Part shown: positions 5,205 through 56,290 of the stretch, one piece after another | Position numbering within the stretch: position 1 is the stretch's first letter | Layout: every line of letters starts with the position of its first letter | NCBI GenBank assembly: GCA_027623295.1 | Contig: JAQBXR010000007.1 | Span: 43,552-107,551 of the forward strand | Direction: 5' to 3' | DNA: 64,000 nucleotides | Origin: Planctomycetota bacterium | GTDB taxonomy: Bacteria; Planctomycetota; UBA1135 | Notes under the pieces: generated by a model | Told to the model about the DNA's origin: nothing | What the model saw: only the letters and a program-made list of their open reading frames with translations | Database searches by the model: none | Made by a program: the position numbers and the translations under genes

Positions 5205-5230
5205 GGCCGCATTCTAACTACGCGCACGTT

Positions 5231-6043: not shown

Positions 6044-6196
6044 GAAAGCCTTCGCGCTCTTGCGCTTCGAGCAGGACATCGCCAGGAATCGCAGACGGCT
6101 GATTTTGCGTTGGCATGACGCAGGCCCAGCCGAACAGGGCGAAGGAAAGGCAACGCGAGACTCGGTTTTTATTGCCTTTCACGATTAGGCTGAGAG

Positions 6197-6694: not shown

Positions 6695-6742
6695 GAATAT
6701 ACCGCCGAGCGGATGGTTTATCCCAATCTAAGAACTCCTGGT

Positions 6743-8560
6743 CTAAGGAGTTAGAGACAGACTCTGTGGTTCGCTCAGCAAATCGACGCTGCCGCCAGGG
6801 CCAAAGACGACAAAGGCATGATTCAGGGTTGATCCGGCAGCGCCCAAGAAGGCATTTGGCGGAAAGCTGAGGGTCGCAGTGGCTTTGCCCTGGGCATCGA
6901 GGGTGCCGCGGAAAGCACCGAACAGCACATGTCCGGGCTGCCGCAAGGTCAATTGAAAGTAGGGGCCAGCATTTAAGAACAAGTGGTTGACGCCTTGATT
7001 TAAGCCTGGGGAACGACCGGTGTTACTGCCGAGCATCCAATATTGTTTGATGCCATGCGCCAGGCCGGCATCGAGGCTGAAAGTCGCAGTGCCACCAGGA
7101 GTCAGGGAAAGACTATTTACGTCTTGCTTGAGGTGATCCAGGCCAAGGTGTCCGTCGCTAAAAATGTTTTGCCCGAAGATGTCATCGTTGCCATTGCGTT
7201 CATCTTCCCAGAACACCACGGCTTCTTCAGTCTCGCTCATGGATAGGGATAAGCGAGTAGAGCGATTACTTGGCAGGCTGCAAACGGTTTCTGGTCCGCC
7301 CCAAACTTGGGTTCCAGAAGCATCCACTAAAGTTGCAATCACTTCATCCTGTCCAAAGCCGCCGTTTGGTGCCCAGCCGAGTACAGCAAGGGCGCCATCG
7401 GCCAAAGGCTCGACGTAGCTTAGATATTTGGTTGCAGAGTCCACCGGCAAGATTTCGATTCCATTACCCCAAGTGGTTAGCCCGTTGGCGTCGACTTGTT
7501 GTGCAAACCAACCGCTCTGCGATTGACCGCTGTTCTTTTCACTCCAGAATGCAAAGATGCTGTTGGTACGCGCGTTGAAGGCAGCGCGCGGTGCAATGTG
7601 ATTCATGCCGACCGCATTGGACAGCGGGACTCCAAGGTGTGGAAAGAGCTCGGCGCCGCTGCTATCCAGGCGTTGCACATAAGCATCGAATAGGCCGCCG
7701 CGGCTTGGGTTGCTGACATGCCAGCACAAGACTGCGCCACCATTGTCATCGGCCAAGAGCTGAGGACTGTACGCAAAGGGTAAATTGGAGGCGTCGTACA
7801 CTTCGGTGGGTTGAGCCCAAGCGGGAGCGCCAGAAGGCAAGAAGGCTTGCGTGCGTAGGTGCTTGGTGCTGGTGAAAAAGTTGGTGTCGCGCACCCAACT
7901 CACAATCACGTTTCCATTGTCGCCGGCCACCACTTCTGCAAAACCAGGCGAAGCGCCGGCTTCCGCGGCAATCACTACGCCACCTGCTTGCAGTTGCGGT
8001 TGACCGCCGGCATCCAAGCGTTGCATGCGAATCACCGGGTTCGCACTGAACTGACTCCACACCACTACGAAATCACCGGTGCTGGTTTGGGTGACCATAG
8101 GGTCGGCTTCGAAATCCCCATTCACCGAAAGCGTGACGCCATTGGGGCCCCAAGGAAGGCCTCCGGTTGCCGCAATGCAGTAGGCATAAACATCGAGGTC
8201 GCTGCCGGAACGGGTGTCGGTGAAGACCACGACTGCATTACCACCAGTGTCGGCAGTGAGATCCCAGTTCACCAAACTAGAAGACTGCGGGTTGCTGCTT
8301 ACTAATACTCCGCCGGGTGCAAAAGTGGCTTGTCCAGTGGCACTGTAAAGCTGGGCGTAAACGTCGTAGTTGCCAGAAGCATTGTCGAACCAGGCCACCC
8401 ATCGACTACCGTCAGCGGTTGTGGCGGACTTCGGTAAGGCCTGTTCGCCAGCGCGGGCGACTACGGTTGTGTTCTGGTTGGCATCGTCGCTCCATTGGGC
8501 GGCAAGCGGAGCTGCGAAAAGCACGAGCGAGGGGAGAGCAACAAAGGCGAACTTGACCAT
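6743..8560 (-). CDS. Secreted repeat protein, probable beta-propeller with about 8 blades, plus a C-terminal beta-rich domain
   Basis: Signal peptide MVKFAFVALPSLVLFAAPLAAQ. A roughly 50-aa unit recurs, for example RWVAWFDNASGNYDVYAQLYSATG, AVVVFTDTRSGSDLDVYAYCIAATG, AVLCWHVSNPSRGGLFDAYVQRLDSSG and AVVFWEDERNGNDDIFGQNIFSDG. Confidence 0.7.
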   Translation of the reverse strand: MVKFAFVALPSLVLFAAPLAAQWSDDANQNTTVVARAGEQALPKSATTADGSRWVAWFDNASGNYDVYAQLYSATGQATFAPGGVLVSSNPQSSSLVNWDLTADTGGNAVVVFTDTRSGSDLDVYAYCIAATGGLPWGPNGVTLSVNGDFEADPMVTQTSTGDFVVVWSQFSANPVIRMQRLDAGGQPQLQAGGVVIAAEAGASPGFAEVVAGDNGNVIVSWVRDTNFFTSTKHLRTQAFLPSGAPAWAQPTEVYDASNLPFAYSPQLLADDNGGAVLCWHVSNPSRGGLFDAYVQRLDSSGAELFPHLGVPLSNAVGMNHIAPRAAFNARTNSIFAFWSEKNSGQSQSGWFAQQVDANGLTTWGNGIEILPVDSATKYLSYVEPLADGALAVLGWAPNGGFGQDEVIATLVDASGTQVWGGPETVCSLPSNRSTRLSLSMSETEEAVVFWEDERNGNDDIFGQNIFSDGHLGLDHLKQDVNSLSLTPGGTATFSLDAGLAHGIKQYWMLGSNTGRSPGLNQGVNHLFLNAGPYFQLTLRQPGHVLFGAFRGTLDAQGKATATLSFPPNAFLGAAGSTLNHAFVVFGPGGSVDLLSEPQSLSLTP

Positions 8561-8573
8561 CCACCCATTCTAA

Positions 8574-9986
8574 TCAGGAAATCGGATTCGCGGTGGGGTT
8601 CTGGGCGTCGTCCTTTTTCTGGTCTTGCGGCGGAGTAAACAGTTGCATGCGCCGGAAAAACCAGATAATCGCCGCAAGCTTGAGAACATTGCCCACGTTC
8701 AGTGCCCACCAGATCCCTGCGGCACCCAATCCCAACCCCGCAGAGAACCACCATGCAATCGGAATGCGGACCGCGTTGCCTGCAATGCTGACGTAGGCCA
8801 TTTGCAGAGTGCGGCCAGCGCCGGTCATCATTTGCTGCAAAGTGGAGTAAGCCGCGGTGGCTACTTGGGTGAAAGCGACGATGGCAAGATAAAGCGCGGC
8901 CTCGTCTAGAACCGCTGGGTCGTCGGTGAACCAGGAAGCCATTTCGCGTCCCACTAAAAGCTTGGCAGCAGCGGCCATCATGGCAAACGCAACGGAAAGT
9001 CCAAGGCAACTCATGGCACCACGTTTTGCACCTTGATAATCCAGTGCGCCAAGGCGTCGACCAACAATGCTCGATGCGGCCATGGCAGGGCCCATCATGC
9101 CGCAATAACTCACCGACTCGATGCCGTTAAACCCAACCGCTAAACCTGCTTGAACATTTGCGCCAAGCGGAGCCACACTGGTTTTCATAATGGCTATAAA
9201 ACAACCGGAGTAGGCGGCATGTGAAAAGCCAACTGGAAGGCCCACTCGGACAATGCGTTTGAGTTCTGCTACGTCAAAAGTGCGTTTGAGGAAACCACCT
9301 AAGCCGAACCATTGCTTCAGCGCTAACACTCCAAGTAGAGCGCAAAAGCCGCGCGAGATGCCGGTGGACCAAGCGGCACCTTCCATGCCCATCGCGGGGA
9401 ATCCCCACCAGCCATAAATCATGGCCGGGTTGAGGACCGCGTTGAGCGCCACCGATAAAAGCGACAATAACATAGGCATGACGGTGTTACCCAAACCTAA
9501 GAATACGCAGTCAATCAGTGGTTTAAAGCCGATGAGAGGAAGCACGATGTAAATTGTGCTGAGATACTCCTCTGCAAAAACCGCTGGTGCGCCAAAGCCA
9601 CCTGCCATGCGCACCCAGAACGGGGTGGTCATCCATCCAAGCAGTCCAATGAGGCTAAACCAAATCAATCCCGCACGGCATGCGGTGCCAATGGTGCGCT
9701 CCACGTTGTCATGTTGTCCCGAGCCGCTGTGAAATGCAACACGCGCTAAAACTCCACTGGTGATGATCGACAAAAACGAAAAGTTTAGGATCAACATGAA
9801 GGTGGTTAACCCCATGGCCGCCTGAGCGTCGGGACCAAGGTCGCCAACCCAATACTGGTCGTTCACTCGATACCCAGCGTGCAATAAAAACGACAAGGTA
9901 ATCGGCCATGACAAGCGAAATGCTTCTCGTAGGCTTTCGCGTCGGGTGGTGTTGTGCGCGAGCGGACGGATGGAGGTAGGACCCAA
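8574..9986 (-). CDS. MATE-family efflux transporter
   Basis: 470 aa with about 12 hydrophobic segments and a typical MATE N-terminus (LREAFRLSWPITLSFLL). TTG start. It begins 13 nt upstream of the next gene. Confidence 0.75.
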   Translation of the reverse strand: MGPTSIRPLAHNTTRRESLREAFRLSWPITLSFLLHAGYRVNDQYWVGDLGPDAQAAMGLTTFMLILNFSFLSIITSGVLARVAFHSGSGQHDNVERTIGTACRAGLIWFSLIGLLGWMTTPFWVRMAGGFGAPAVFAEEYLSTIYIVLPLIGFKPLIDCVFLGLGNTVMPMLLSLLSVALNAVLNPAMIYGWWGFPAMGMEGAAWSTGISRGFCALLGVLALKQWFGLGGFLKRTFDVAELKRIVRVGLPVGFSHAAYSGCFIAIMKTSVAPLGANVQAGLAVGFNGIESVSYCGMMGPAMAASSIVGRRLGALDYQGAKRGAMSCLGLSVAFAMMAAAAKLLVGREMASWFTDDPAVLDEAALYLAIVAFTQVATAAYSTLQQMMTGAGRTLQMAYVSIAGNAVRIPIAWWFSAGLGLGAAGIWWALNVGNVLKLAAIIWFFRRMQLFTPPQDQKKDDAQNPTANPIS

Positions 9987-11061: not shown

Positions 11062-11106
11062 CAGGCGAGAATAAACTATGTGCCCCCGGTACGTGCACTA
11101 AACATC

Positions 11107-13605
11107 ATGATTCGTCGACCTCTCCCTTTCGCTGCGCTGGCCCTCTTGTCGGGCCTCGCCGCAATCCCTTTATTCGCCCACACCTCCGGCTCCGGCGATT
11201 CTGCTCCAAACACGAGCGGTTCTTCTGAGCAGAAGGCGCAGCGCGTGGTGGTCCTCGGCATGGACGGCATGGATGCCGAAGTGACTGGCGACTGGATGGA
11301 TGCCGGTGAGCTGCCGAACTTTCAGCGGCTCCGCGAGGGCGGCACCTTTGCACCACTCATGCCAGCCAACCCTGCGCAGTCTCCGGTTTCTTGGGCAACC
11401 TTGAACACGGGTGTGAACCCGGGCAAGCACGGCATTTTTGACTTTGTGGGTATTGCACGCGGAAGCAAGAGCAGCCCGGTTACGCCCAACATTGGCTTTC
11501 AAGAGGCTAAGTACTTCACGGCAGAAGAGCTGGGCATGAGTCCAGCCGGCGGCGATTCGAACTACGCAATTATGGGTGGAGGTTTGGTTCTCGGTTTGGT
11601 GCTTTTACTCGGCATTGGTCGGTTGAATAAGCCTGCCGGTTTGGTGATTGGTCTGGCGGTTGCCGGTGGCGCCGTGTTCTTCGGACAGGGCGGTGATGCC
11701 GTGTTGCCAGAGAAGTTCAAAGATTACGAAAGCTCGAACCACGCAAAAAATTATTGGGAGTCGCTCGATGAAAACGGGATTGAGTTCCGTGGACAGGGCA
11801 CGATTGTGGCTTACCCAACGCAAGAGTTGAAGCACGGCAAGTTGATTGCCGGTCTTGGAGCTCCCGACGCAAAAGGTGGCTTGAACTCAAGCGCGATTTA
11901 CACCACCGCAAAGGAACGAAAAGGACGACGTAAAAACTACGACTCTCTTCCTGCAACGGTGATTGAAGAAACCGAAGACTTCAACGTTCGGGTGGGCAAA
12001 AACGCCGGTACTACGCGCGTATTTGAGTTTGTGAAGGAAGGCAACGTGCTTAAGTCGCACCTTTACGGCCCAGCAAACTCCATCCTGAAGAGTAGCTTGA
12101 CCACCGAGCGCAATGAATTGCAGGAAAGTGACAGTGACCCAGAACGCCTTAAGCAGCTAGTTGCTTTGGTAGGCGATGGACGTCGTAGTTTTGGCAACTC
12201 CGACCTTCTGGACACATCCGTTCCGATCTCTGCAACTTGGACCAAAGGCGCTTCGGTGGACTTGACCGTTGCTGAGGTTGCGCAAAACATCGCGCTGAAC
12301 CATTGGAGCGATTTCTATCAAGTGGAATTCCCATGGCACCCTTCTTACAGCACTTGGGCTTTGGTCCGTTTCTGGGTAGAAGAGCGTGACGGTGAATTGG
12401 AAATCTTTGCATCGCCATTGCAGATCGACCCGCAACATCCGACTCCTGGCAGCCGCATCAGCTGGCCGGCAAGCTTCGCCGCGGACATCGAATCGCGGAT
12501 TGGACGCTTTGAAACTTTGGGTTGGGCGTGTCAAACCCACGCCGTGAAAGATGCAGAGCTTTCAGACGACGCCTTCTTGGCAGACATCGAGTTCACTCTC
12601 GGATGGCGTACTAAGATGCTGAAAGATGCCGTCGAGCAGGGCGACTGGAAAGTGTTGTTCCACTTCTTCGGAACGCCGGACCGCATTTTTCACATGCTTA
12701 TGCGTCACATGGATCGGCTGCACCCACAGTTCGACGAAGCCGAGGCAAACCGCATGGTTCATTACTTCGGTCAAGACTTTGCACTCAAAGACAGTGGCTT
12801 GGTCATTTACAAAGAGATGGACAAGATTGTCGGCTACGTGCTGGATGAAGTCCTAGCGGAAGACGATGTCATGATGATCGTTTCTGACCATGGCTTCGAT
12901 AGCTTCCGCCGTCAAGTAGATTTGAACGCTTGGTTGGCACAAGAAGGCTTCATGGCTTTGGCCAATAAGTCTGCACTTGGCATTCCAAAGACCGCAAAGG
13001 AAATGAGCAGAAGTGCGCTGAATTTCATTGATTGGCGCGAGTCTCAGGCCTACTCGGTGGCCATCGGCAAAATCTACCTCAACCGGAAGGGGCGTGAATC
13101 TAAAGGCATCGTGACCGATGAAGATGCCGACGCCGTGCTCCAGGAAATCAGTGATCGCCTTTACGCGATGACCGATCCAGATTCGGGCGAGAAGGTTGTA
13201 AAGAAGGTTTATCTACGCGATGACCTTTACAGCGGACCTTATGTGCACCGTTCGGAAACCGGTGGCGAAGGCGCTGCGGAAATCACCATTGACTTCTACC
13301 CGGGTTATCGCGCTTCTTGGTCGGTGACCGGTGGTGGAATCACTTTGGCCGATGGTGAGAACGAAGATGGCGACAAGATTGCTATTCCGGGTGCCTTCAT
13401 CTATGACAACGATTACGCATGGTCGGGTGACCACTGTGGAGTCGACATCATGGAAGTGCAGGGCATCTTCTTCAGTAACAAGCAGTTGGCCTTGCCCTCT
13501 GGAGATGAGTGGTACGACGCCACGCACCTTGCTCCAACAGTGTTGGACTTGCAGGGCGTTGCGATCCCTGAAAATTACGATCGCGCCCCGCTACAACTTA
13601 AGTAA
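11107..13605 (+). CDS. Alkaline-phosphatase-superfamily enzyme, type I phosphodiesterase/nucleotide pyrophosphatase-like (large paralog 1)
   Basis: VVVLGMDGMD, AQSPVSWATLNTGVNPGKHGIFDF, MIVSDHGFDSF and YAWSGDHCG. Signal peptide MIRRPLPFAALALLSGLAAIPLFA from ATG 11107 (the ORF-track GTG is at 11080). An internal hydrophobic hairpin reads IMGGGLVLGLVLLLGIG...AGLVIGLAVAGGAVFFG. Confidence 0.8.
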   Translation: MIRRPLPFAALALLSGLAAIPLFAHTSGSGDSAPNTSGSSEQKAQRVVVLGMDGMDAEVTGDWMDAGELPNFQRLREGGTFAPLMPANPAQSPVSWATLNTGVNPGKHGIFDFVGIARGSKSSPVTPNIGFQEAKYFTAEELGMSPAGGDSNYAIMGGGLVLGLVLLLGIGRLNKPAGLVIGLAVAGGAVFFGQGGDAVLPEKFKDYESSNHAKNYWESLDENGIEFRGQGTIVAYPTQELKHGKLIAGLGAPDAKGGLNSSAIYTTAKERKGRRKNYDSLPATVIEETEDFNVRVGKNAGTTRVFEFVKEGNVLKSHLYGPANSILKSSLTTERNELQESDSDPERLKQLVALVGDGRRSFGNSDLLDTSVPISATWTKGASVDLTVAEVAQNIALNHWSDFYQVEFPWHPSYSTWALVRFWVEERDGELEIFASPLQIDPQHPTPGSRISWPASFAADIESRIGRFETLGWACQTHAVKDAELSDDAFLADIEFTLGWRTKMLKDAVEQGDWKVLFHFFGTPDRIFHMLMRHMDRLHPQFDEAEANRMVHYFGQDFALKDSGLVIYKEMDKIVGYVLDEVLAEDDVMMIVSDHGFDSFRRQVDLNAWLAQEGFMALANKSALGIPKTAKEMSRSALNFIDWRESQAYSVAIGKIYLNRKGRESKGIVTDEDADAVLQEISDRLYAMTDPDSGEKVVKKVYLRDDLYSGPYVHRSETGGEGAAEITIDFYPGYRASWSVTGGGITLADGENEDGDKIAIPGAFIYDNDYAWSGDHCGVDIMEVQGIFFSNKQLALPSGDEWYDATHLAPTVLDLQGVAIPENYDRAPLQLK

Positions 13606-13644: not shown

Positions 13645-14151
13645 TCAGTCGCCGGCGTAACCAAGCCCGCTTAGGTCGACACCAGGGCCATTGGTGCGGA
13701 TGGCTTCAAAAGCAGCAGCAGGCTTTCCTAGCTTTTCTTTGAGGTCCGGGAAGGTAGCCAATGCATAGGCGACCATTTCATCGCCAGCATCTGGCATGGC
13801 GGCAGCAACCGCAGCATCGCAAAGTTTGAGCAAGCCATCGCCGGTGAGGTGATCTGCATGGTCAGCTTTGAGGCGATCGAAAGCAGCCATGGCGCCTTCT
13901 TCATTGCTGTCATCGAGGTGCAGGTTGACCAAAGCGAGCAAGGCATCGCCCTGAAGTTTGGCATCGCCGTTTGCTGCAGCGTACTCATAGCCAGCTTGTG
14001 CGGTTGCAACGTTGTCAGAAGCAGCAGCGGCATCGGCCTGGTCCATGGCAGCAACCGGATCGGTGAAAGTCGCAGCGGTTTCTTTGGAATCGCCAGAGCA
14101 AGCGGCAAGGCCGAGCGCCAGGACGAGGGGGAGTGTGTGAGTGAAACGCAT
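13645..14151 (-). CDS. Small lipoprotein of unknown function (paralog A)
   Basis: The lipobox-type signal is LVLALGLAAC-SG. The rest is Ala/Asp-rich and helical. It is collinear with the neighbouring 164-aa lipoprotein. Confidence 0.7.
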   Translation of the reverse strand: MRFTHTLPLVLALGLAACSGDSKETAATFTDPVAAMDQADAAAASDNVATAQAGYEYAAANGDAKLQGDALLALVNLHLDDSNEEGAMAAFDRLKADHADHLTGDGLLKLCDAAVAAAMPDAGDEMVAYALATFPDLKEKLGKPAAAFEAIRTNGPGVDLSGLGYAGD

Positions 14152-14219
14152 GATGGTTGTCGGGTCGGAGATTTCCGGGGAGGAATCTTACTCTTTACGG
14201 CTAGGGGGTGTTGAAATTA

Positions 14220-14714
14220 TTAGTCGTGAGCACATCCAATCTGACTTAGGCCGCCACTTTTAATCAAGGTTCGGATCCTGGTGTACTCTTCATCTATGAC
14301 AATCCACCTGTCTTGTAGCTCAGGGTATTCCTCACTGGCAAGCTGCAGCATGGGCTCGCCGAGCTCGGCCATGTTGGCGGTGATCGCCAGGTTACACAGG
14401 TTGCGGAGTTTCTCAGCGGATAAGAGTGGCATGTGGTCCGCAACCAGGCAATCAAAAATCAGCAAGCCTTGGTCGGTTTTGCCATAGCGCAAATGGACGT
14501 CAAGTAGGCCGAAAAGGGCTTCAGAAGCCATTTCTTCACTCCCATGCTCCAAGGCATACGCGAAGCCAGCCTCGGCGGTCATGGGGTGATTCGCGGCAAT
14601 TGCTGCATCGGCTATGACGAGCGCTGCAACGGGGTCGTCGAAGTTGGGGATGACCTCTTCTTTTTCGCATGCTGCGAGGCAGAACAAGAGGAGTAGGGAG
14701 GTGACGGACTTCAT
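14220..14714 (-). CDS. Small lipoprotein of unknown function (paralog B)
   Basis: The signal is LLLLFCLAAC-EK. DPVAALVIADAAIAANHPMTAEAGFAYALEHG... aligns with DPVAAMDQADAAAASDNVATAQAGYEYAAANG... of paralog A. Confidence 0.7.
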   Translation of the reverse strand: MKSVTSLLLLFCLAACEKEEVIPNFDDPVAALVIADAAIAANHPMTAEAGFAYALEHGSEEMASEALFGLLDVHLRYGKTDQGLLIFDCLVADHMPLLSAEKLRNLCNLAITANMAELGEPMLQLASEEYPELQDRWIVIDEEYTRIRTLIKSGGLSQIGCAHD

Positions 14715-14817: not shown

Positions 14818-14866
14818 GATTGGAGTAAGAAAGCACTCACAAGGGGTATCTATTCGCACTCCAATC
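14818..14866. promoter_or_regulatory. Perfect 9-bp inverted repeat (GATTGGAGT-N31-ACTCCAATC) 36 nt upstream of the RHH gene and sat
   Basis: Read directly: arms at 14818-14826 and 14858-14866. It could be an operator or a 5'-UTR stem. No function has been demonstrated. Confidence 0.3.
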
Positions 14867-14901: not shown

Positions 14902-15120
14902 ATGCAAAAAGAAACACGAGTCACTGTTAAAATCCCACGTCCGCTTTACCGGCGGATTCAGCAGGTGATTGCTAACACGGGTTTCTCGTCACCAACCGAG
15001 TTCATCGTTTACGTCCTCAGGGACCTGATGAGCGAAGTTGAGACCAAGGAAGAGCAGGAATTTAGCCCTGAAGAATTGCAGGCCATTACGCAGAAGTTGA
15101 AAAACCTCGGATACCTGTAA
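14902..15120 (+). CDS. Small ribbon-helix-helix (CopG/Arc/MetJ-like) protein, paralog 1
   Basis: The beta-strand VTVKIP is followed by helices PLYRRIQQVIANTG and FSSPTEFIVYVLRDLM. An acidic linker and a C-terminal LKNLGYL tail follow. The gene lies 36 nt upstream of sat. Confidence 0.65.
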   Translation: MQKETRVTVKIPRPLYRRIQQVIANTGFSSPTEFIVYVLRDLMSEVETKEEQEFSPEELQAITQKLKNLGYL

Positions 15121-15155: not shown

Positions 15156-16307
15156 ATGATTGCTCCGCACGGTGGAAACCTGATCAACCGCGTCGTCGAA
15201 GGTGGCGAGCGCGAATCCTTGCTCGCAAAGGCAGCCTCTTTGCCGGCTCTCACCCTCAACTCCCGCGAAACCAGCGATTTTGAAATGATCGCCACTGGCG
15301 CCATGAGTCCTTTGGAAGGTTTCATGGGAGAAGCCGATTACCACGGTGTCGTGGAAAACATGCACCTCGCATCGGGTCTCGCTTGGCCACTACCTGTGGT
15401 TCTTGCAGCAAAGGATGGCGAGTCCGCAGTTGCGGGTTCTGAGTACGCCCTGAAAGGCGAAGACGGAACCATTCTTGGTGTCATCGCCGTAGACAGTGTC
15501 TACAGCCCTGACAAGAAGAACGAGCTAGTGAAGTGCTATCAGGGTGACGAAGATCACCCAGCATGGGGCTACCTCGCATCCATCGGTGACACCTACATTG
15601 GTGGTCAAATCACCATGGCAAATCTGCCTGCTTACGAGAAGCACAACGATTTCCGCCTCACTCCAGTGCAAACCCGCGCTGCCTTCGCTGAGAAGGGTTG
15701 GAACAGCATTGTTGCTTTTCAAACACGTAACCCAATTCACCGGGCTCACGAATACCTAACCAAAGTGGCACTTGAGCAGACCGATGGTCTCTTGATTCAC
15801 CCATTGGTTGGCGACACCAAGGCAGATGACATTCCATCGGATACCCGCATGGAGTGCTATCACGCACTGCTGAACAAGTACTACCCACTCGATCGCACCA
15901 TGCTCGGCGTTTACCCGCAGGCCATGCGTTACGGCGGTCCACGTGAGGCGATTCTGCACGCGCTTTGCCGTCAGAACTACGGTTGTACTCACATCATCAT
16001 TGGTCGCGATCACGCTGGCGTAGGTTCTTACTACGGCACCTTCGATGCCCAACAGATTTTCAACCAGTTTCCCGATGGAGAGATTCTCATCGAGACCTTA
16101 CTTTTTGAGCATGCTTTTTACTGCAAGTTGACCGGCGGCATGGCTTCCACGAAGTCCAGCCCAGCCACTAAAGACCAGAAGGTCTTCCTTTCCGGTACCA
16201 AGGGGCGTGAAATGCTAGCAAATGGCGTACGTCCGCCAGCTGAGTTCACGCGTCCTGAAGTCGCCGACATCCTGATCGCTTCCTACGCTCAACCGGCGCA
16301 GGCTTAG
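15156..16307 (+). CDS. sat: Sulfate adenylyltransferase (ATP sulfurylase)
   Basis: QTRNPIHRAHEYL and IIGRDHAGVG motifs at a homo-oligomeric Sat length (383 aa). Confidence 0.92.
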   Translation: MIAPHGGNLINRVVEGGERESLLAKAASLPALTLNSRETSDFEMIATGAMSPLEGFMGEADYHGVVENMHLASGLAWPLPVVLAAKDGESAVAGSEYALKGEDGTILGVIAVDSVYSPDKKNELVKCYQGDEDHPAWGYLASIGDTYIGGQITMANLPAYEKHNDFRLTPVQTRAAFAEKGWNSIVAFQTRNPIHRAHEYLTKVALEQTDGLLIHPLVGDTKADDIPSDTRMECYHALLNKYYPLDRTMLGVYPQAMRYGGPREAILHALCRQNYGCTHIIIGRDHAGVGSYYGTFDAQQIFNQFPDGEILIETLLFEHAFYCKLTGGMASTKSSPATKDQKVFLSGTKGREMLANGVRPPAEFTRPEVADILIASYAQPAQA

Positions 16308-16336: not shown

Positions 16337-17248
16337 ATGTTTGGATTTGGTAAAAAACGCGAGAACAACCATCTGTTCATCATCACACTCGACTCGTGCC
16401 GCTTTGACTCGTTCATGGCGGCCGAGCCGGAGAACATCGCCAAATTGTGCGGTGGTCTCAGTAATGTTGAAAAGCGTTATTCCTACGCTGGATGGACCGC
16501 TCCGTCTCACTACAACCTCCTGACCGGCTTAGTGCCGCACAGTAGTCCTACCGAGGTTTACGCTTCGGAGTACTACAAAGAGGATCTCTACAAGTTCAAG
16601 GATCGCCTTGGTGTGGAGGAGGCTGGCTTTGAAGCCATGATTCCGCATCTATGGCTTCCGGCTTACATGAAGAAAAAGGGCTATGAAACTCATGCTCTTG
16701 TTTCTTTGCCGGTTTTGAACCCTGCTACCGGGATTAACCGCGACTTTGACACTTTCAAACTCATGCCAAAGCACAACGACATGTTGGCTATGTTGGATGA
16801 TATGGAAGCACACAAGAAGCGTGATTCCAAGGGTCTTAAGGGCAACACTCCACAGTTCTACTTGATGAACGTGGGTGAAACTCACTATCCATATGGCTTG
16901 CCCGATGAGGACAAGAACGATTTGCCGCACATCTCTGGTGTGAATGGTATTTTCAAGAAGCTGGATAAGCAGATTGGTGACGACGGCGTCTTGATCTCGG
17001 ACAAAGAGTCCGGCGATTTCATGGACGCAGACATCATCGAGAAGTGCCGCCAGCGCCAAATCAACACGGTGAAGTATCTCGATCAAGAGGTCTTCCCACG
17101 GTTTTACGACCTGCTACCGAAAGATAGCTGGGTCATTGTTACTGCTGACCACGGTGAACTGTTCGGTGAAGGTGGCTACTTTGGCCACGGCCCGATCATG
17201 CACGAAAAGTGTTTCGAGGTTCCCTTCCTCGAAGGCAAACTCAAATAA
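16337..17248 (+). CDS. Small cytoplasmic alkaline-phosphatase-superfamily enzyme (NPP/type I phosphodiesterase-like, Thr nucleophile)
   Basis: IITLDSCRFD (metal-ligand Asp). GWTAPSHYNLLTGLVP resembles the NPP motif TFPNHYSIVTGLYP. VIVTADHGELFGEGGYFGHG is also present. There is no signal peptide. The gene lies 29 nt after sat and 30 nt before cysC. Confidence 0.7.
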   Translation: MFGFGKKRENNHLFIITLDSCRFDSFMAAEPENIAKLCGGLSNVEKRYSYAGWTAPSHYNLLTGLVPHSSPTEVYASEYYKEDLYKFKDRLGVEEAGFEAMIPHLWLPAYMKKKGYETHALVSLPVLNPATGINRDFDTFKLMPKHNDMLAMLDDMEAHKKRDSKGLKGNTPQFYLMNVGETHYPYGLPDEDKNDLPHISGVNGIFKKLDKQIGDDGVLISDKESGDFMDADIIEKCRQRQINTVKYLDQEVFPRFYDLLPKDSWVIVTADHGELFGEGGYFGHGPIMHEKCFEVPFLEGKLK

Positions 17249-17278: not shown

Positions 17279-17830
17279 ATGTCTGACCATAAAGGATTCG
17301 TACTCTGGTTCACCGGCCTATCCGGTTCTGGCAAGTCCACCCTCTCTCGCATGATTGAAGGTGAATTGCGTAAGCGCGACTGCAAGGTCGAAGTTCTCGA
17401 TGGCGATGAAGTTCGCGAGAACCTCTCCAAAGGCCTCGGTTTCTCCAAGGAGGACCGCGACACCAACGTGCGTCGTATCGGCTACGTTGCCAAGCTGCTT
17501 AGCCGCAATGGTGCTATCTGCATCACTGCTGCAATCTCTCCATACAAGGACGTGCGTGACCAGTGTCGCGCGATGAACCGTCACTTCGTTGAAATCTACG
17601 CAGAGTGCTCGATTGAGGAGCTCACTCGCCGCGACGTCAAGGGTCTTTACGAAAAGGCTTTGTCTGGTGAGATCAAGCACTTCACCGGCATTTCGGATCC
17701 TTACGAGGCTCCTGAGAAGGCGGAAGTCACGATCAACTCTGAAACTCAGTCAGAAGAGGAATCGCTCAAATCCATCATGGATTACCTCGAAGGTCAGGGT
17801 TACATCCCGGCCGTCGCAGCAAACGCATAG
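17279..17830 (+). CDS. cysC: Adenylylsulfate (APS) kinase
   Basis: P-loop FTGLSGSGKSTL, LDGDEVR and the SPYKDVR block. 183 aa. Confidence 0.92.
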   Translation: MSDHKGFVLWFTGLSGSGKSTLSRMIEGELRKRDCKVEVLDGDEVRENLSKGLGFSKEDRDTNVRRIGYVAKLLSRNGAICITAAISPYKDVRDQCRAMNRHFVEIYAECSIEELTRRDVKGLYEKALSGEIKHFTGISDPYEAPEKAEVTINSETQSEEESLKSIMDYLEGQGYIPAVAANA

Positions 17831-17911: not shown

Positions 17912-20077
17912 ATGAAGCGGTCCCGCAGATTCCTTCTCCCCCTCGCTGTTCTATTTGCATGGCTCAGCGCCCCCGACCCCGCCTCGGCCTACATTGGCCC
18001 CGGTGCGGGTTTCGCATTCCTGTCAGGTGGCTTGGTCCTCATTGGATCCCTGTTCCTGGCGGTCGGCATCCTGCTGATCTACCCATTGAAGATGATCTTT
18101 CGGATTGCCACTGGCGCCGGAAAGATTAAAGGCGATATCAAACGCCTCGTCATCATCGGTTTCGATGGCATGGACCCTCGCCTTGCGCAGCGGTTCATGG
18201 ACGAAGGTCGCATGCCCAATATGAAGGCGTTAGCAGAGGAGGGGAGTTTCTCTCCACTGCAAACGGCATACCCTTCCATGTCGCCGGTTGCGTGGTCGTC
18301 GTTCTCGACAGGTGTAGATGCTTCGCGGCACAACATCTTCGACTTTATTACGCGCGATCCTTGCACGTACATGCCGATCCTTTCCAGCACCGAGATCACC
18401 TCGGCTGAGAAGGCTTTGGTGAAGATTGGCAAGTTGGAATTGTTCAAGCGGCCGAGCTCAAGTATCAAGTTGTTGCGTAAAGGAACTCCTTGGTGGAAGA
18501 CTCTGGGTGATAAGAAGATCTTTTCCAACATCATTCGCGTGCCGATTACCTTCCCACCGGAAGAGCATCATGGCGTGTTGCTGAGTGGCATGTGTGTTCC
18601 TGACTTGAAGGGAACCCAAGGCAGTTTCACTTTTTGGACTAGCGATGAATCCCTCACTGGCCCCGATGCCGGCGGCGATGTGTTGTTAGTAGGCAAAAAT
18701 GGTAACGCCTATCGTTGTCCAATCACTGGCCCGCCCGATCCATCGCAAGCGCAGGCTACGCCAATGCGCGTGCCGATGAAGGTTGAGGTTCTGGTAGACG
18801 GCGAGAAGCTTCGCCTGACCATTGGCGCCAAAGGCAAGCAGCAAATCGTAAACCTGGGCGTCAAGGAATACTCCGAGTGGATTACTCTCGAGTTCAGGGC
18901 TGCCAAAGGCAAAGCCAAGGTCACCGGAATCGCTCGCTTCTACTGCATGGGCACCGATCCTGAGTTTGGCCTCTATATGACGCCAATCCAGATCGATCCA
19001 GCAAACCCAGCGATGCCGATTTCGCATCCAACGGTTTACTCGATCTACCTTGCTAAAAAGCACGGTCCATTTTCCACGCTTGGACTTGCCGAAGATACTT
19101 GGGCATTGAACGAACGCGTCATTGATGAGGAAGCGTTCTGGAAGCAGGCGCTAAACATCTGGGATGAGCGTCGTTTGCAGTTGTTTGATTCGCTGCAGAA
19201 TACTCCAAAGGGTTCCATCGTCTGTGTCTTCGATGGTACCGACCGCGTGTCACACATGTTCCACCGTTACTTGGACCCAAGTCACCCTGCCAACGAAGGC
19301 AAGGATACCGAGTGGGGCAAGGACAAGGTCGCCGAGATTTATTCCATCGCCGATGGTTTGGTCGGAGACGTGCGCAAGAAACTGAACCCGAAGAAGGATC
19401 GTTTAATGATCATCTCGGACCATGGTTTCTGTCAGTTCAAGCGCGGAGTGAACCTCAACGCTTGGTTGCGTGACAATGGTTACTTGGTCTTGAAGGACGA
19501 TGCACCAGTCGATGAAGCCTCCGGCAAGCCCACTTCGCGTGACTGGCTGAGGGATGTCGATTGGACTAAAACTAAAGCGTTTGCGCTTGGCCTTACCGGC
19601 ATGTTCATCAACCGCAAAGCCCGCGAGCGCGATGGCATTGTGGAAGAAGGCGCTGAGTTGGAAGCCTTGAAGGCAGAAATCATTGCCAAGCTTTCCGCCG
19701 TGAAGGATCCCAAAGACGGTGAGTTGATCTTCAAGGAGGTCTTCGATGCCGGCAAAATCTTTACCGGACCTTACGTCTTCCAAGCTCCTGACTTGTTCAT
19801 GGGCTATAAGCGTGGTTACCGCAACTCATGGGATTGCGCGACGGGCGCTTGCCCGGTCGAGGTGTTCTCGGATAACACCAAGTCGTGGTCGGGTGACCAC
19901 TGCATTGATCCGCGCGAGGTTCCAGGAGTCATTTTCTCCGATACTCCGCTCAACACCGATACGCCAAACCTAATGGACCTCGGCCCAACTGCCCTGCGTC
20001 TGTTCGATGTTGACGTGCCAAAATACATGCAAGGCCAACCGTTGTTTGGTGAACGCAAAGAAAAGGTGAAGTCATGA
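17912..20077 (+). CDS. Alkaline-phosphatase-superfamily enzyme, type I phosphodiesterase/NPP-like (large paralog 2)
   Basis: VIIGFDGMDP, SMSPVAWSSFSTGVDASRHNIFDF, MIISDHGFCQF and KSWSGDHCID. The N-terminus has two hydrophobic segments (FLLPLAVLFAWLSA and AYIGPGAGFAFLSGGLVLIGSLFLAVGILLIYPL). Confidence 0.8.
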   Translation: MKRSRRFLLPLAVLFAWLSAPDPASAYIGPGAGFAFLSGGLVLIGSLFLAVGILLIYPLKMIFRIATGAGKIKGDIKRLVIIGFDGMDPRLAQRFMDEGRMPNMKALAEEGSFSPLQTAYPSMSPVAWSSFSTGVDASRHNIFDFITRDPCTYMPILSSTEITSAEKALVKIGKLELFKRPSSSIKLLRKGTPWWKTLGDKKIFSNIIRVPITFPPEEHHGVLLSGMCVPDLKGTQGSFTFWTSDESLTGPDAGGDVLLVGKNGNAYRCPITGPPDPSQAQATPMRVPMKVEVLVDGEKLRLTIGAKGKQQIVNLGVKEYSEWITLEFRAAKGKAKVTGIARFYCMGTDPEFGLYMTPIQIDPANPAMPISHPTVYSIYLAKKHGPFSTLGLAEDTWALNERVIDEEAFWKQALNIWDERRLQLFDSLQNTPKGSIVCVFDGTDRVSHMFHRYLDPSHPANEGKDTEWGKDKVAEIYSIADGLVGDVRKKLNPKKDRLMIISDHGFCQFKRGVNLNAWLRDNGYLVLKDDAPVDEASGKPTSRDWLRDVDWTKTKAFALGLTGMFINRKARERDGIVEEGAELEALKAEIIAKLSAVKDPKDGELIFKEVFDAGKIFTGPYVFQAPDLFMGYKRGYRNSWDCATGACPVEVFSDNTKSWSGDHCIDPREVPGVIFSDTPLNTDTPNLMDLGPTALRLFDVDVPKYMQGQPLFGERKEKVKS

Positions 20078-22218
20078 AGCACACGCTAAAACTTGCCGCC
20101 GTCTTGGTTGCTGGAATGAGTCTTCTAGGTTGTGGTGAAAAACAATCCGAGACTCGTGTGGTCGTGTTCGGTGTGGACGGATTAGATCCGGAAATGCTGC
20201 AAGAACGCGTCGACAGGGGCATGATGCCTAACTTCAAGAAGTTGTTGGATAACGGCTCGACTTTCGCGCCGCTGCAAACTTCTTGGCCTCCGCAATCGCC
20301 AGTCGCATGGTCGAACTTCATCTCGGGTGTGAATCCGGGTAAGCATGGTTTGTATGACTTCATTCATGCGGACTACACGCAGAAAAACTACGGTGTGAAG
20401 TCTTCCATGGCGGAAACTACCCCAGTGGGGCGTGACATCACCTTGTTTGGTTATGATATTCCGTTGACCGGGGGAGTCACTTCTAGCACGCGTAAGTTCC
20501 CAGCCTTCTGGGAAGTCCTGGCCGATGCAGAGGTGCCGACCTACGTGCACCGCATGCCGGCAAGTTTTCCGCTTACCGAAACCACTGCTACGGTATTCCC
20601 GGACATGGGGACGACGGATATGGTCGGCGCAATGTCTGGAATTTCTTATCTTTGGACCGAAAATGAGTTCAAGGGCAAGAGTTTGGTGGGAGAGTCTTAT
20701 CGCGTGGAGAAAGTAGAACTCAACCGTCGTAATGAGGACATGTGGCTTCAGTGGACCAAGCTTTACGGACCAGCAGAAACCATTCTCAATGTCGATGACC
20801 TCAAGCATCAAATCCACGAGGCGATTGAGGCCGGCAACAACGAAAAGGCCAATGCACTGCAAAAGGAGATCGAGCGTAAGCAAGAAGTCTCCGTTCCAGT
20901 CGCGCTGATGGTTGACAACACCGGCGATGCCCCGCAACTCGCGGTGCAAATCGAAGATCAATACGCCACCGCCGGATTAGGTGAGTGGAGTAACTGGGTG
21001 CAGGTGGAATTCTCGGTGCTTGGCGGCCTGATGCCGCTTACCGGATACACCCGTTTCCGCTTTATGTCTGCGCAACCATTCGAAGTTTACGCCCTGCCGA
21101 TTCAGTTCGATCCTTATGCGCCGGCAACGGAGATTTCCATGCCGCCAGAAGCAAGTGCTGAACTCGCCGAAGCGATTGGCCCCTATATGGTGCAGGGATT
21201 CGCCGATGCCTACAAGTCCTACAAAGCCGAGTTGTTGGATACTTCTGGCTTTATCAACCAGTCCGACATGGCTCTGGATGAACGCACCAAAATGATGCAC
21301 TACGGTCTCGATCAAATCGAGGAGACCGGCGGACTCTTGTTCCTCTACACGGGGTCATTGGACATGCGCTGTCACATGTTGTGGCACACCTCCGATGACA
21401 TACACCCGCACCAAGAGGAAGCTGGTGAGTACTTAGGCGTTCCTTACGACGAGCAGATTGATCGCATTTACATGCAGGTCGACACCATGCTCGGCGAAAT
21501 GGTCGCACGCATTGAAAAGATGGAAGTGGAGTCCGGTGAGAAAATCGAACTCATCGTCATGTCGGACCACGGCTTTGCGCCTTTCCATCGCAAGATGCAC
21601 ATCAATGATTGGTTGGTGCAAGAGGGTTACTTGGTGCTGAAAGATGGCATCACCGAAACTAGTGACCTCAATCTTGATCTCGATGCCGATGGCCATCCGA
21701 TTAAAGGTTCTGGCCCAGTGGATTGGTCGAAAACCACGGCTTACTGCATTGGCTTTAACGGCATCCTGCTGAACCGCGTAGAGCGCGAAGGCGAAGGCAT
21801 CGTTACCGACGAGGAAGTGGAGGCCTTGCTCACCGAGATTACCGGCAAGTTGCTCGCACTCGAAGATGGCGGAGTGCCAGTCCTCACCCGCGTGCTTCCA
21901 GCAACCGAAGTCTTCCAGGGGCCAGCCGAAGTCATGAAGTTTGCCCCGGACCTGCAACTCGGATTTAATACCGGCTTTGGCGCTTCTGATGAATGCGCGA
22001 TTGGCGGTGTCGTCGGTGGGGGAGAATTCCTCGTCGACAATGATTCCCGCTGGTCGGGATCGCACCTCATGGATCCTGAACTCGTTCGGGGCACCATCAT
22101 CTCTACGTCTGGCAAAACCTTCTCGAAGGACCCAGCGCTAGAAGATATCACTGCAACCCTCTACAGTCTGTTCAACGTGGCTCCCCCCGAGGGCACCGAC
22201 GGACTACCTCTTTACTAA
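20074..22218 (+). CDS. Alkaline-phosphatase-superfamily enzyme, type I phosphodiesterase/NPP-like (large paralog 3, lipoprotein)
   Basis: ATGA overlap with paralog 2. The lipobox signal is VLVAGMSLLGC-GE. Motifs VVVFGVDGLDP, PQSPVAWSNFISGVNPGKHGLYDF, IVMSDHGFAPF and SRWSGSHLMD are present. Confidence 0.8.
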   Translation: MKHTLKLAAVLVAGMSLLGCGEKQSETRVVVFGVDGLDPEMLQERVDRGMMPNFKKLLDNGSTFAPLQTSWPPQSPVAWSNFISGVNPGKHGLYDFIHADYTQKNYGVKSSMAETTPVGRDITLFGYDIPLTGGVTSSTRKFPAFWEVLADAEVPTYVHRMPASFPLTETTATVFPDMGTTDMVGAMSGISYLWTENEFKGKSLVGESYRVEKVELNRRNEDMWLQWTKLYGPAETILNVDDLKHQIHEAIEAGNNEKANALQKEIERKQEVSVPVALMVDNTGDAPQLAVQIEDQYATAGLGEWSNWVQVEFSVLGGLMPLTGYTRFRFMSAQPFEVYALPIQFDPYAPATEISMPPEASAELAEAIGPYMVQGFADAYKSYKAELLDTSGFINQSDMALDERTKMMHYGLDQIEETGGLLFLYTGSLDMRCHMLWHTSDDIHPHQEEAGEYLGVPYDEQIDRIYMQVDTMLGEMVARIEKMEVESGEKIELIVMSDHGFAPFHRKMHINDWLVQEGYLVLKDGITETSDLNLDLDADGHPIKGSGPVDWSKTTAYCIGFNGILLNRVEREGEGIVTDEEVEALLTEITGKLLALEDGGVPVLTRVLPATEVFQGPAEVMKFAPDLQLGFNTGFGASDECAIGGVVGGGEFLVDNDSRWSGSHLMDPELVRGTIISTSGKTFSKDPALEDITATLYSLFNVAPPEGTDGLPLY

Positions 22219-22239: not shown

Positions 22240-22437
22240 ATGTTTGGTGGAAATAAACTAAAGATCAATAAGGACATTATCGAGCGCTGCAAAAAGTGTT
22301 CGGAGGTCGCTGGCTACTCTTCTGTAGAAGAGTTCGTCGAGCACATTCTCGAGAAGGAACTGAAAGGCATCGAAGGTGCTGGCACTTCCGACGAAGCGAT
22401 TACCGAAAGCCTGCGCGGCCTCGGTTACATCAGCTAA
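22240..22437 (+). CDS. Small ribbon-helix-helix-like protein, paralog 2
   Basis: KLKINKDIIERCKKCSEVAGYSSVEEFVEHILEKEL aligns with VTVKIPRPLYRRIQQVIANTGFSSPTEFIVYVLRDL of paralog 1. The C-terminal LRGLGYIS aligns with LKNLGYL. Confidence 0.6.
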   Translation: MFGGNKLKINKDIIERCKKCSEVAGYSSVEEFVEHILEKELKGIEGAGTSDEAITESLRGLGYIS

Positions 22438-22466: not shown

Positions 22467-23390
22467 ATGAAACAACGAATCATCGTCATCGGCATCTGTG
22501 CAATCCTTGTGGCAGTTGGCATGCTTGCGCCAACCGTCATGAACGCCATTTTTGATGTCTTCGACTTAGCCTTCGGTTGGGCCGGCCCGTTTGCGGTCGT
22601 CACCATAGTTTCCGGATTGGTTGGGGTGTTGTTCATCCTTGCCTTCCCGCACGTTTCCTCACAGAAAGGAATCAAGTCGGTGAAGTCAAAGATTAGCTAC
22701 AACCTAGTTTCGATTCGCCTATTCCAAGACGACTTGCCAACCGTGATGCGGTCCCTAGGCGCCACGCTTACTTGGAACTTTACTTACCTTGGGTTGAACC
22801 TGCTTCCAATGGTGGTGCTTGCCGCGCCATTCATGATTGTGTGGTTTCAGCTCAACGCGCTTTATGCTTATCAACCGGTGCATGCTGGCTCCGAGCAGAT
22901 GGTCGTGGTGGAGTTAAGTGAGTCGGTTGCAGATCCAAGTGAAGTGGTTGTCACCATGCCAGACGGCGAGGTGCTCGGCTCCCGGGTCAACTTGGGCAAG
23001 CGCTACAACACCGAAGATCCTCCGGTGCAGCAAGCCGCAACTTTGTTGGTGCGCTACATCCCAAGTACCGAGGGCAGCCAAGCGCTCACCTTCAGCTACG
23101 CCGGAGAGAGTGTTACCAAGACGGTTGAGGTAGACACCGATCCGCGTCGTTTGGCGCGCATCCGCACCTCTGACCCATTGGGTGGATTTGTAGCGGCGGT
23201 CGACCCGATTGTCTACTTCGGTGACCCAGTCCTGCCTTCGAGCAGCTTCGTGCGCAACGTCACGGTCAACTACGCAGTGGCTCCACTCTGGTTCATGGCT
23301 GGCGGTGAAATGTCCATCATGATTTGGTTTGTGGTGGTCTCCATGATTGTCGGCTTCGGACTGAAAGGCCCACTTGGGGTTGAGATCTAA
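22467..23390 (+). CDS. Membrane protein of unknown function
   Basis: The N-terminal half has about 4 hydrophobic segments, followed by a soluble middle region of about 120 aa and a C-terminal TM (MSIMIWFVVVSMIVGFGL). It lies 29 nt after RHH paralog 2. Confidence 0.6.
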   Translation: MKQRIIVIGICAILVAVGMLAPTVMNAIFDVFDLAFGWAGPFAVVTIVSGLVGVLFILAFPHVSSQKGIKSVKSKISYNLVSIRLFQDDLPTVMRSLGATLTWNFTYLGLNLLPMVVLAAPFMIVWFQLNALYAYQPVHAGSEQMVVVELSESVADPSEVVVTMPDGEVLGSRVNLGKRYNTEDPPVQQAATLLVRYIPSTEGSQALTFSYAGESVTKTVEVDTDPRRLARIRTSDPLGGFVAAVDPIVYFGDPVLPSSSFVRNVTVNYAVAPLWFMAGGEMSIMIWFVVVSMIVGFGLKGPLGVEI

Positions 23391-43388: not shown

Positions 43389-43559
43389 AGCGATTTCGCG
43401 GGTGGACCCGTGAAAAATCCCGGGTCAAATCACAAGAGAGGTGAAAGCCTCTATTGAGCCGCGCATCTTAACACCTGGGCGGGCATCTGGATATGGAAAG
43501 GACAGCGAAAAGTGAGTGCTGACACGCTAGGAACTCGGATTTCCGGGTCCTAGAATGGG

Positions 43560-56279: not shown

Positions 56280-56290
56280 GCGCAGTGAGA

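Follow-up and report, generated by a model that had tools for sequence, protein, structure and literature searches.

A soluble Thr-type sulfatase-fold protein encoded between sat and cysC in a Planctomycetota bacterium: a candidate PAPS-consuming transferase linked to a predicted membrane-spanning gene module

The locus described here lies in a 64,000-nucleotide stretch of contig JAQBXR010000007.1 from a Planctomycetota bacterium (positions 43,552 to 107,551 of the forward strand; hereafter the window), in which an open reading frame labelled X is inserted between sat and cysC, the genes for ATP sulfurylase and adenosine 5'-phosphosulfate (APS) kinase. X begins with ATG and forms part of a same-strand unit in the order c7, sat, X, cysC, c1a, c1b, c4 and c2, with gaps of 21–81 nt and one 4-nt overlap. 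The unit combines sulfate-activation genes with two members of the nucleotide pyrophosphatase/phosphodiesterase (NPP) family, two small ribbon-helix-helix-like (RHH-like) proteins and a membrane protein, some with transmembrane (TM) helices, as follows:

c7, 14902..15120, + strand: 72-aa RHH-like protein ending in ...KLKNLGYL, conserved directly 5' of sat-X-cysC or X-cysC.
sat, 15156..16307, + strand: homo-oligomeric ATP sulfurylase with PUA_2 and ATP-sulfurylase domains; stop 29 nt before X.
X, 16337..17248, + strand: 303-aa soluble Thr-type sulfatase-fold (alkaline-phosphatase superfamily) enzyme; proposed catalytic set D19, T54 (nucleophile), H58, H183, D271/H272 and H284.
cysC, 17279..17830, + strand: APS kinase; start 30 nt after X.
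c1a, 17912..20077, + strand: 721-aa NPP-family protein (PF01663) with a signal-like leader, an AxA/YIGPGAG junction, one TM helix and a K/R-rich stretch; catalytic domain predicted to face the cytoplasm.
c1b, 20074..22218, + strand: 714-aa NPP-family protein (PF01663) with a lipoprotein signal (…SLLGC), predicted periplasmic; 4-nt overlap between its start and the c1a end.
c4, 22240..22437, + strand: 65-aa RHH-like protein ending in ...LRGLGYIS, always between c1b and c2 in related loci.
c2, 22467..23390, + strand: 307-aa polytopic membrane protein, the last gene of the module; the window copy has no Pfam match.

Both enzymes flanking X exceed their curated NCBIfam cut-offs (Sat, NF003166, 486 bits against 387; CysC, NF002059, 257.5 bits against 244). 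X is a real gene rather than a chance open reading frame, since 5,894 database proteins are homologous to it at E<=1e-3 and its orthologues reach 92% identity. Its length, spacing to sat and cysC and lack of a signal peptide, as given by the initial annotation, agree with the open-reading-frame coordinates, the NCBIfam scores and a hydropathy scan. The Kyte-Doolittle scan reveals no hydrophobic segment in the protein, which starts MFGFGKKRENN, so X is predicted to be cytoplasmic, without signal peptide or TM helix. Planctomycetota orthologues share a conserved hydrophobic-basic N-terminus, MGLFD.FKKK or MFG.FGKKRE (window 16337-16370), often followed by a Pro/Arg-rich linker, which possibly serves for peripheral membrane binding; in Acidobacteriota the N-terminus of X is purely basic. 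A scan of little power detected no convincing internal terminator in the eight-gene unit, and promoter and terminator matches do not rise above the shuffled expectation, so that the operon boundaries are drawn from the short gaps.

X is a member of the alkaline-phosphatase superfamily. Pfam Sulfatase (PF00884) matches residues 15–298 with 40.4 bits and passes its gathering threshold (GA) of 25, whereas Pfam NPP (PF01663) matches only residues 14–123 with 19.6 bits and stays below its GA of 23; the description of X as an NPP-like enzyme in the initial annotation thus holds for the superfamily and not for the Pfam family. The best NCBIfam match, the STM4013/SEN3800 hydrolase NF038075, lies far below its cut-off (57.5 bits against 250). 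Neither of the sulfotransferase families PF00685 and PF13469 matches X in Pfam, and no 5'-phosphosulfate-binding (PSB) loop of the PRSGTS or PKxGTT type is found in it. A Foldseek search of the PDB with an AlphaFold (AF2) model of X (predicted local distance difference test score, pLDDT, 75.9; predicted TM-score, pTM, 0.81) gives 135 matches at E<=1e-3, and the best 50 of the 135 all belong to the alkaline-phosphatase superfamily. The top matches are a Vibrio member of the superfamily (3lxq), EptC (6a82), LtaP (4uop), many S1 sulfatases and YejM, with a Foldseek probability of 1.0 for EptC, LtaS-type and sulfatase structures; TM-scores of 0.4-0.54 indicate that none of the solved structures among the matches listed is close.

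Profile searches against PDB sequences point the same way. The profile of near orthologues of X has no significant match, and a broader profile, extended to ~30% identity, matches choline sulfatase, carrageenan sulfatase and phosphonate monoester hydrolase at ~1e-7 to 1e-6, Xanthomonas NPP at 6e-5 and phosphoethanolamine (PEtN) transferases at ~3e-3. Across the two profiles, the N-terminal ~55 residues resemble NPP best (Xanthomonas NPP), and the C-terminal half is sulfatase-like.

The motifs quoted in the initial annotation, LDSCRFD (residues 18-24), GWTAPSHYNLLTGLVP (52-67) and TADHGE (269-274), are all present in X, and the family alignment shows the metal-ligand blocks to be conserved. Residue-level alignment to sulfatases places T54 on the formylglycine Cys of C-S-P-S-R, confirming the Thr that had been noticed at the Cys/Ser position, and H58 on the Arg of the same motif; H183, within THYPY, falls on the conserved sulfatase His, D271-H272 on DHG, and H284, within GHGP, on the catalytic Lys of DKGP (YDKGP). 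The aligned nucleophile motif accordingly reads T54-A-P-S-H58, with no C/S-x-P-x-R. Because Cys/Ser, Arg and Lys are replaced by Thr54, His58 and His284, X is not a formylglycine sulfatase and cannot use the formylglycine mechanism. In the alignment to NPP 2gsn ('SLTFPNHYTLVTG'), the Thr nucleophile in T-x-P-x-H-Y...T-G is present as well. D19, R22, D24, H58, T182 and H183 are invariant in the family alignment (to ~30% identity), and T54, D271, H272 and H284 are at least 90% conserved. E181/H183 and H284/H289 are also conserved, and no alignment of X to the second-Zn-site residues of NPPs (D-x-x-x-H plus a distal His) was obtained. These alignments place X in the sulfatase-like branch, as a soluble Thr-type member of minimal size. 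It represents a new subfamily of a known superfamily, and the family has no prior characterisation; a literature search found nothing on the X family, on the c1a-c1b-c4-c2 module or on a sulfotransferase of alkaline-phosphatase fold.

Comparison with characterised relatives defines what is shared and what is particular to X. The PEtN and phosphoglycerol transferases (EptA, EptC, MCR-1, LtaS/LtaP), which form a covalent Thr intermediate and transfer a group rather than simply hydrolysing it, likewise belong to PF00884, have a Thr nucleophile in place of formylglycine and carry a DHGE...G-x-x-H-G block with His where sulfatases have Lys (T54 and H284 in X). They supply two of the top Foldseek matches (6a82 EptC, 4uop LtaP) and weak profile matches (6bne, E 2.8e-3; 4kav; MCR-1), which extend over this block. 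X differs from them in having no N-terminal multi-TM domain or signal peptide, at TM-scores of ~0.4-0.5, and from Ept in its nucleophile motif T-A-P-S-H, which is of sulfatase/NPP type, and in a genomic context of sulfate activation rather than lipopolysaccharide or teichoic acid synthesis. The type I formylglycine sulfatases, choline sulfatase 6g5z and carrageenan sulfatase 6ptk, are the best profile matches (E ~2e-7) and share the D-x-x-R-x-D strand, the x-x-P-S-x nucleophile loop, the T-H-Y-P His and the DHG metal ligands; besides the changes at Thr54, His58 and His284, X differs in retaining only a ~300-aa core, without the C-terminal subdomain that brings those enzymes to ~500 aa. Xanthomonas NPP 2gsn (PF01663) resembles X in its Thr nucleophile within T-x-P-x-H-Y-x-L-x-T-G, and NPP gives the best alignment for the first ~55 residues of X. 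NPPs attack nucleotide phosphoanhydrides; X differs from them in its sub-threshold PF01663 score and sulfatase-like C-terminal half, and a true NPP found at related loci (Y460, below) forms a separate family. The STM4013/SEN3800 hydrolase, named after Salmonella locus tags, is like X a small (~260-aa) soluble sulfatase-like protein of unassigned function, and only the C-terminal ~60 residues align.

The X family is broadly distributed, over at least 8 phyla. An exhaustive search of representative proteins returns 386 clusters at E<=1e-10, of which 74 reach E<=1e-30; hosts include Planctomycetota, Acidobacteriota, Binatia, Fermentibacteria, Actinomycetota, Myxococcota, Bdellovibrionota, Dormibacteria and cultured Synechococcus. 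Source annotations describe these homologues only as 'sulfatase-like hydrolase/transferase' or 'metalloenzyme'.

Gene order around X was counted in 80 species-representative genome loci. A sulfate-activation gene lies within 5 kb of X in 24 of them, with cysC directly downstream in 18 and sat directly upstream in 11; the c1a module lies within 6 kb in 27, and 40 of the 80 have X near a sulfate-activation gene or the module. All 24 Planctomycetota-type loci show sat-X-cysC or X-cysC, and contigs with an X of 60-92% identity repeat the gene order of the window. In Planctomycetota the Sat next to X is of two subtypes, one of 383 aa (64-86% identical to the window Sat) and one of ~417 aa (only ~36%), while X remains at least 57% identical (about 60%, and CysC likewise) across loci with either subtype (L002, L003, L008 and L016-L020, compared with window 15156-16307). 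Because Sat falls to ~36% identity and X does not fall below 57%, the sat-X-cysC arrangement was maintained across a change of sulfurylase, which suggests that the enzyme may have been replaced while the gene order was kept. A c7-X-cysC arrangement without sat also occurs in Planctomycetota (L010-L015, L019, L021).

The linkage recurs in Acidobacteriota with a second type of sulfurylase. Specifically, locus L034 carries the string PHP - cysD - cysN - cysC - sulfatase-like - X - c1a - c1b - c4 - c2; in L076 a cysN-cysC fusion (cysNC) is divergent from X at a distance of 174 nt; and in L070 and L075 cysC lies on the opposite strand, 362 nt and 1,275 nt upstream of X. In 16 acidobacterial loci X adjoins c1a with no sulfurylase detected nearby. 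Linkage of X to the synthesis of 3'-phosphoadenosine 5'-phosphosulfate (PAPS) thus recurs with two non-homologous sulfurylases, Sat and CysDN, and the orthologue linkage to sat/cysC that the initial annotation proposed as a check is found in all Planctomycetota-type loci and in the CysDN-bearing Acidobacteriota.

The downstream genes were traced independently of X by probing metagenome contigs with c1a, which yielded 80 loci (L086-L165). The order c1a-c1b-c4-c2 is complete in 24 of the 28 best-covered loci (at least 12 kb, with at least 3 kb upstream of c1a) and is a tight, widespread, ordered four-gene module. Orthologues of c1a contain an invariant Y-[IV]-G-P-G-A-G, preceded in most by a signal-like leader with an A-x-A signal-peptidase-like site and followed by one TM helix and a K/R-rich segment (window 17912-18150). 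By the positive-inside rule this layout predicts an N-out/C-in anchor with the NPP-like domain in the cytoplasm, and a lipobox or signal-anchor predicts that c1b is periplasmic; with the polytopic c2, the module is therefore predicted to span the membrane. The c2 orthologue of L048 has a weak match to EMC3/TMCO1 of the Oxa1/YidC-like insertase superfamily, with E 9e-4 and a score that does not reach the gathering threshold.

The module is also linked to PAPS synthesis where X is missing. In L134 and L149 a gap of 3 nt separates c2 from cysD, with cysN next and, in L134, cysC as well; sat-cysC lie downstream of the module in L145 and upstream of it in L150, L151 and L098, whereas in L121 and L156 the two genes are upstream on the opposite strand. 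Modules without X can carry other partners. A canonical sulfotransferase of ~200 aa directly flanks c1a or c2 in 26-28 of them; it matches PF13469 (E 4e-12) and also PF00685, its consensus contains a PRSGTS PAPS-binding loop, and it has no match among PDB sequences. The third partner, in X-less lineages, comprises soluble ~430-467-aa true NPP-family proteins with PF01663 scores of up to 161 bits (156 for Y460) and a Thr nucleophile in PPITVPAW, encoded between sat and cysC or directly upstream of c1a (L151 2663-4036; L113 7397-8776; L098 3747-5117; L113 9308-10708), as in the orders sat-Y460-cysC-Y467-c1a (L151) and c7-Y460-cysC-Y467-c1a (L113). Y460 and X are related only around the DHG motif (hhalign probability 19.6%), which looks like convergent recruitment of another alkaline-phosphatase-superfamily enzyme to the slot of X.

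As neighbours of the module, X and the canonical sulfotransferase exclude each other. A hidden Markov model of the cluster sulfotransferase finds no match, even at E<=0.01, in 95 X-containing loci and the whole window, and genes for cysH, cysQ and a canonical sulfotransferase are all missing from the window. Among the loci of the unbiased set probed from the module side that have at least 1 kb upstream, the counts are:

Loci without X: 28 without sulfotransferase, 25 with sulfotransferase.
Loci with X: 9 without sulfotransferase, 0 with sulfotransferase.

The one-sided Fisher test on these related sequences gives p = 0.006 (28/25/9/0). On the c1a tree, built by neighbour joining, loci with X, sulfotransferase and Y are intermixed and form at least four, two and two clades, respectively, and Fitch parsimony requires at least 13 partner changes, so the pattern does not reflect a single lineage split. 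X and the canonical sulfotransferase thus occupy equal positions in mutually exclusive clusters, flanking c1a and linked to sat/cysC or cysDN/cysC, although they share no sequence or fold relationship, the latter relying on a P-loop-like PSB motif without a metal or a covalent intermediate. Clustering of canonical PAPS sulfotransferases (PF00685/PF13469) with PAPS synthesis genes is known from nodH-nodPQ and raxST-raxPQ.

Taken with the fold, this arrangement makes it the leading, still tentative reading (probability about 0.37) that X could serve as the cytoplasmic PAPS-consuming transferase step of a conserved trans-envelope modification system, in place of an ordinary sulfotransferase. It is ranked first because PAPS is produced by X clusters with no canonical consumer in sight, and X stands where other clusters have the sulfotransferase; of the three roles named in the initial annotation, the novel transferase is accordingly the one favoured by the genomic comparison. 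In outline, Sat and CysC, by family membership, would make PAPS, and X would bind PAPS (or APS) with a metal site of D19, D271 and H272 that activates Thr54, as the alignment to sulfatase and NPP active sites suggests. Thr54 may then attack the sulfuryl or, alternatively, the phosphoryl group of the phosphosulfate to form a covalent Thr54 intermediate, with H183 and H284 at the positions of the sulfatase leaving-group His and Lys. The group would be passed to an acceptor and handled onward by the cytoplasm-facing c1a, by c2 and by the periplasmic c1b; the predicted membrane-spanning module fits outward passage of a group activated in the cytoplasm. Speculatively, the acceptor might be a lipid or glycan precursor, or the invariant Tyr in the LGY tail of c4, c7 and exported cluster proteins.

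A more specific version is doubtful but worth stating: X may be the first sulfotransferase, or other PAPS-dependent group transferase, with an alkaline-phosphatase/sulfatase fold, working through a metal-activated covalent Thr intermediate, and may have repeatedly displaced the canonical sulfotransferase in a widespread trans-envelope sulfation system in which NPP-like enzymes on the cytoplasmic and the periplasmic side are joined by a membrane protein, and whose substrates or carriers are perhaps the L-x-x-L-G-Y-tailed proteins. To our knowledge, every PAPS-dependent sulfotransferase described has the same fold and transfers the group directly, without a metal; if the proposal is true, the sulfatase fold of X would mean sulfatase-type chemistry run in the synthetic direction and a new enzyme class. 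Whatever the chemistry of X, the analysis defines a previously unrecognised module in which a membrane protein and a small protein with an LGY tail accompany two NPP-like proteins on opposite membrane faces. Its genetic coupling to PAPS synthesis extends over many bacterial lineages, among them Planctomycetota that are abundant in the sea and Acidobacteriota of soil, and implies a common, so far unstudied pathway of envelope sulfation or modification. Its three interchangeable partners (X, canonical sulfotransferase and soluble NPP) offer a direct experimental handle.

Several observations weigh against this assignment. The exclusivity concerns adjacency only, and either enzyme could be encoded elsewhere in the genome; 12 module loci have no partner at all. 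In 40 of the 80 X loci, which also depart from the linkage expected by the initial annotation, X lies near neither sat/cysC nor the module (within about 5-10 kb). The contexts in this half include Fermentibacteria-type metagenome-assembled genomes, where in ten loci (L031, L032, L037, L040, L042, L047, L051, L052, L077, L078) X follows an operon of STAS-MlaE, ABC ATPase, MlaD and ABC_trans_aux lipoprotein, with htpG next in most and no sulfur genes visible, and in Binatia it is found in a class II aldolase - X arrangement. The model of X drops below a pLDDT of 50 at residues 199-205 and 280-290, so confidence is moderate near the active-site loops. On the enzymological side, we know of no PAPS sulfotransferase in the alkaline-phosphatase superfamily, and canonical sulfotransferases need neither metal nor covalent intermediate. 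Moreover, c1a is likewise predicted on the cytoplasmic side and might itself be what consumes PAPS in all variants.

Two alternatives would assign X a service function in sulfate activation. As a CysQ-like remover of by-product, one of the roles suggested by the initial annotation, X would hydrolyse the 3'-phosphate of 3'-phosphoadenosine 5'-phosphate (PAP) via a phospho-Thr54 and so relieve product inhibition. The alkaline-phosphatase superfamily is a classic phosphomonoesterase scaffold with a Ser/Thr nucleophile, X tightly adjoins cysC (directly in the 18 loci counted above), the window has no cysQ, and X is widespread in genomes that lack the module, as a housekeeping enzyme might be, phosphopantetheinyl transfer being another source of PAP. 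Such an enzyme should, however, stand beside the sulfotransferase, and X does so in 0 of 28 sulfotransferase loci. Where that expectation is borne out, in L121, the protein is a different one: a string divergent from the module (4821-9896, - strand) encodes sulfotransferase, a PHP-domain protein, a DASS/CitMHS-type anion transporter with TrkA_C, Sat and CysC, apparently a complete sulfation operon. Its PHP-domain protein matches PDB 2yb1 at E 6e-34, and NCBIfam ranks '3',5'-nucleoside bisphosphate phosphatase' first for it (E 1e-57), with a score that falls short of the equivalog cut-off. CV1693, the characterised protein of entry 2yb1, is cited in PMC9410882 (ref. 24) as a 3',5'-nucleotide bisphosphate phosphatase. 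A PHP-domain gene also occurs in the X string of L034; its product shares 37% identity with the L121 protein, for which the CV1693 comparison was made, so this string appears to have a PAP phosphatase already. X-type clusters would furthermore be left without a visible PAP-producing enzyme, and PAP removal is accordingly an improbable function of X.

Hydrolysis of a phosphoanhydride of the activation pathway is comparably hard to sustain. X would act either as an inorganic pyrophosphatase that pulls the unfavourable Sat reaction forward or as an APS/PAPS pyrophosphatase or sulfohydrolase that controls pool size, which covers the proofreading or recycling step considered by the initial annotation. 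The exact position of X between sat and cysC speaks for this, as do the attack of NPP-type chemistry on such bonds and the best alignment of the N-terminal half of X, which is to Xanthomonas NPP; sulfurylase, kinase and pyrophosphatase are functionally coupled and in some eukaryotes even fused. A dedicated helper of the sulfurylase is nonetheless disfavoured because clusters of the sulfotransferase type possess sat without X (L121, L150, L156) and the c7-X-cysC loci listed above possess X without sat, to which the 16 acidobacterial loci with X beside c1a and no detected sulfurylase can be added. A pyrophosphatase has no reason to exclude a sulfotransferase; more generally, a by-product remover should accompany the sulfotransferase and a pyrophosphatase the sulfurylase, and neither should take the place of the sulfotransferase. 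Phosphoanhydride hydrolysis is given only a slim chance here. A further explanation, unlikely in our estimate, is that X acts on the module substrate rather than on a sulfonucleotide, as a soluble, cytoplasmic-side phosphodiesterase or phosphotransferase on a lipid head-group or envelope precursor, with the sat/cysC linkage reflecting co-regulation only. The catalytic domains of EptC, LtaS-type enzymes and MCR-1, the nearest characterised Thr-type relatives, cleave phospholipid head-groups; X follows the MlaE/MlaF/MlaD/lipoprotein transporter operon in the ten Fermentibacteria loci; and half of all X loci are without nearby sulfur genes. This proposal leaves unexplained, however, why X is inserted between sat and cysC across two Sat subtypes, why it lies beside cysNC and cysDN-cysC in another phylum and why it and the canonical sulfotransferase exclude each other, and all characterised transferases of the PEtN/phosphoglycerol type have a TM domain, which X lacks. 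A PAPS-consuming transferase therefore remains the preferred assignment for X. Overall, the initial annotation was right about the superfamily, the nucleophile and the functional neighbourhood, and it missed the Pfam family, the eight-gene unit and the two NPP-like genes downstream of cysC.

A C-terminal tail of the form L-x-x-[LM]-G-Y-(x)1-3 ends three unrelated families of these loci, namely c7, c4 and divergent TPR-like lipoproteins. It is present in 14/14 c7 proteins and in 19/22 of the lipoproteins; in c4 the exact motif occurs in 13/16 and an LGY ending in 16/16. Several exported sulfatase-like or NPP-like paralogues adjoining X carry it as well (L008, L033, L034, L059, L081), and the motif was counted 71 times against 14 expected in shuffled sequences. 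Its invariant Tyr is, speculatively, a candidate modification site, or the tail a docking or sorting tag. An apparent tail on CysC was rejected, since '...YLEGQGYI...' in the window is an ordinary APS-kinase end ('...YLExxGLI'). The c7 model consists of strand-helix-helix plus a C-terminal helix, and its best fold matches are all RHH proteins, none of them significant.

Upstream of the eight-gene unit, the window contains further related features:

Upstream NPP-family paralogue, 11080..13605, + strand: 841 aa; signal peptide plus internal hydrophobic segments; shared with L001, L006, L086 and L087.
Two TPR-like lipoproteins, 13645..14714, - strand: divergently transcribed, 168 and 164 aa; the first (13645-14151) ends in ...DLSGLGYAGD.

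A 9-nt perfect inverted repeat, GATTGGAGT-N31-ACTCCAATC (14818-14866), lies in the divergent promoter region, 36 nt 5' of c7; it was considered as an operator and set aside, having no exact match in any of the 165 related loci. Long members of the X family offer no informative domain fusion, the single HATPase_c 'fusion' probably being a run-on with the adjoining htpG, and the long 'X-like' proteins next to X include both ordinary sulfatases of the Cys type and further paralogues of the Thr type, without a consistent pattern. Anti-phage defence was likewise rejected, as PADLOC has no match for X, c1a, c1b, c2, c4, c7 or the 841-aa paralogue. Elsewhere in the window, and unrelated to X, a Bat/aerotolerance-like operon (52293-62610, - strand) encodes a MoxR AAA ATPase, DUF58 and BatA-N proteins, a protein with a weak VWA match and a 1357-aa PQQ/beta-propeller protein.

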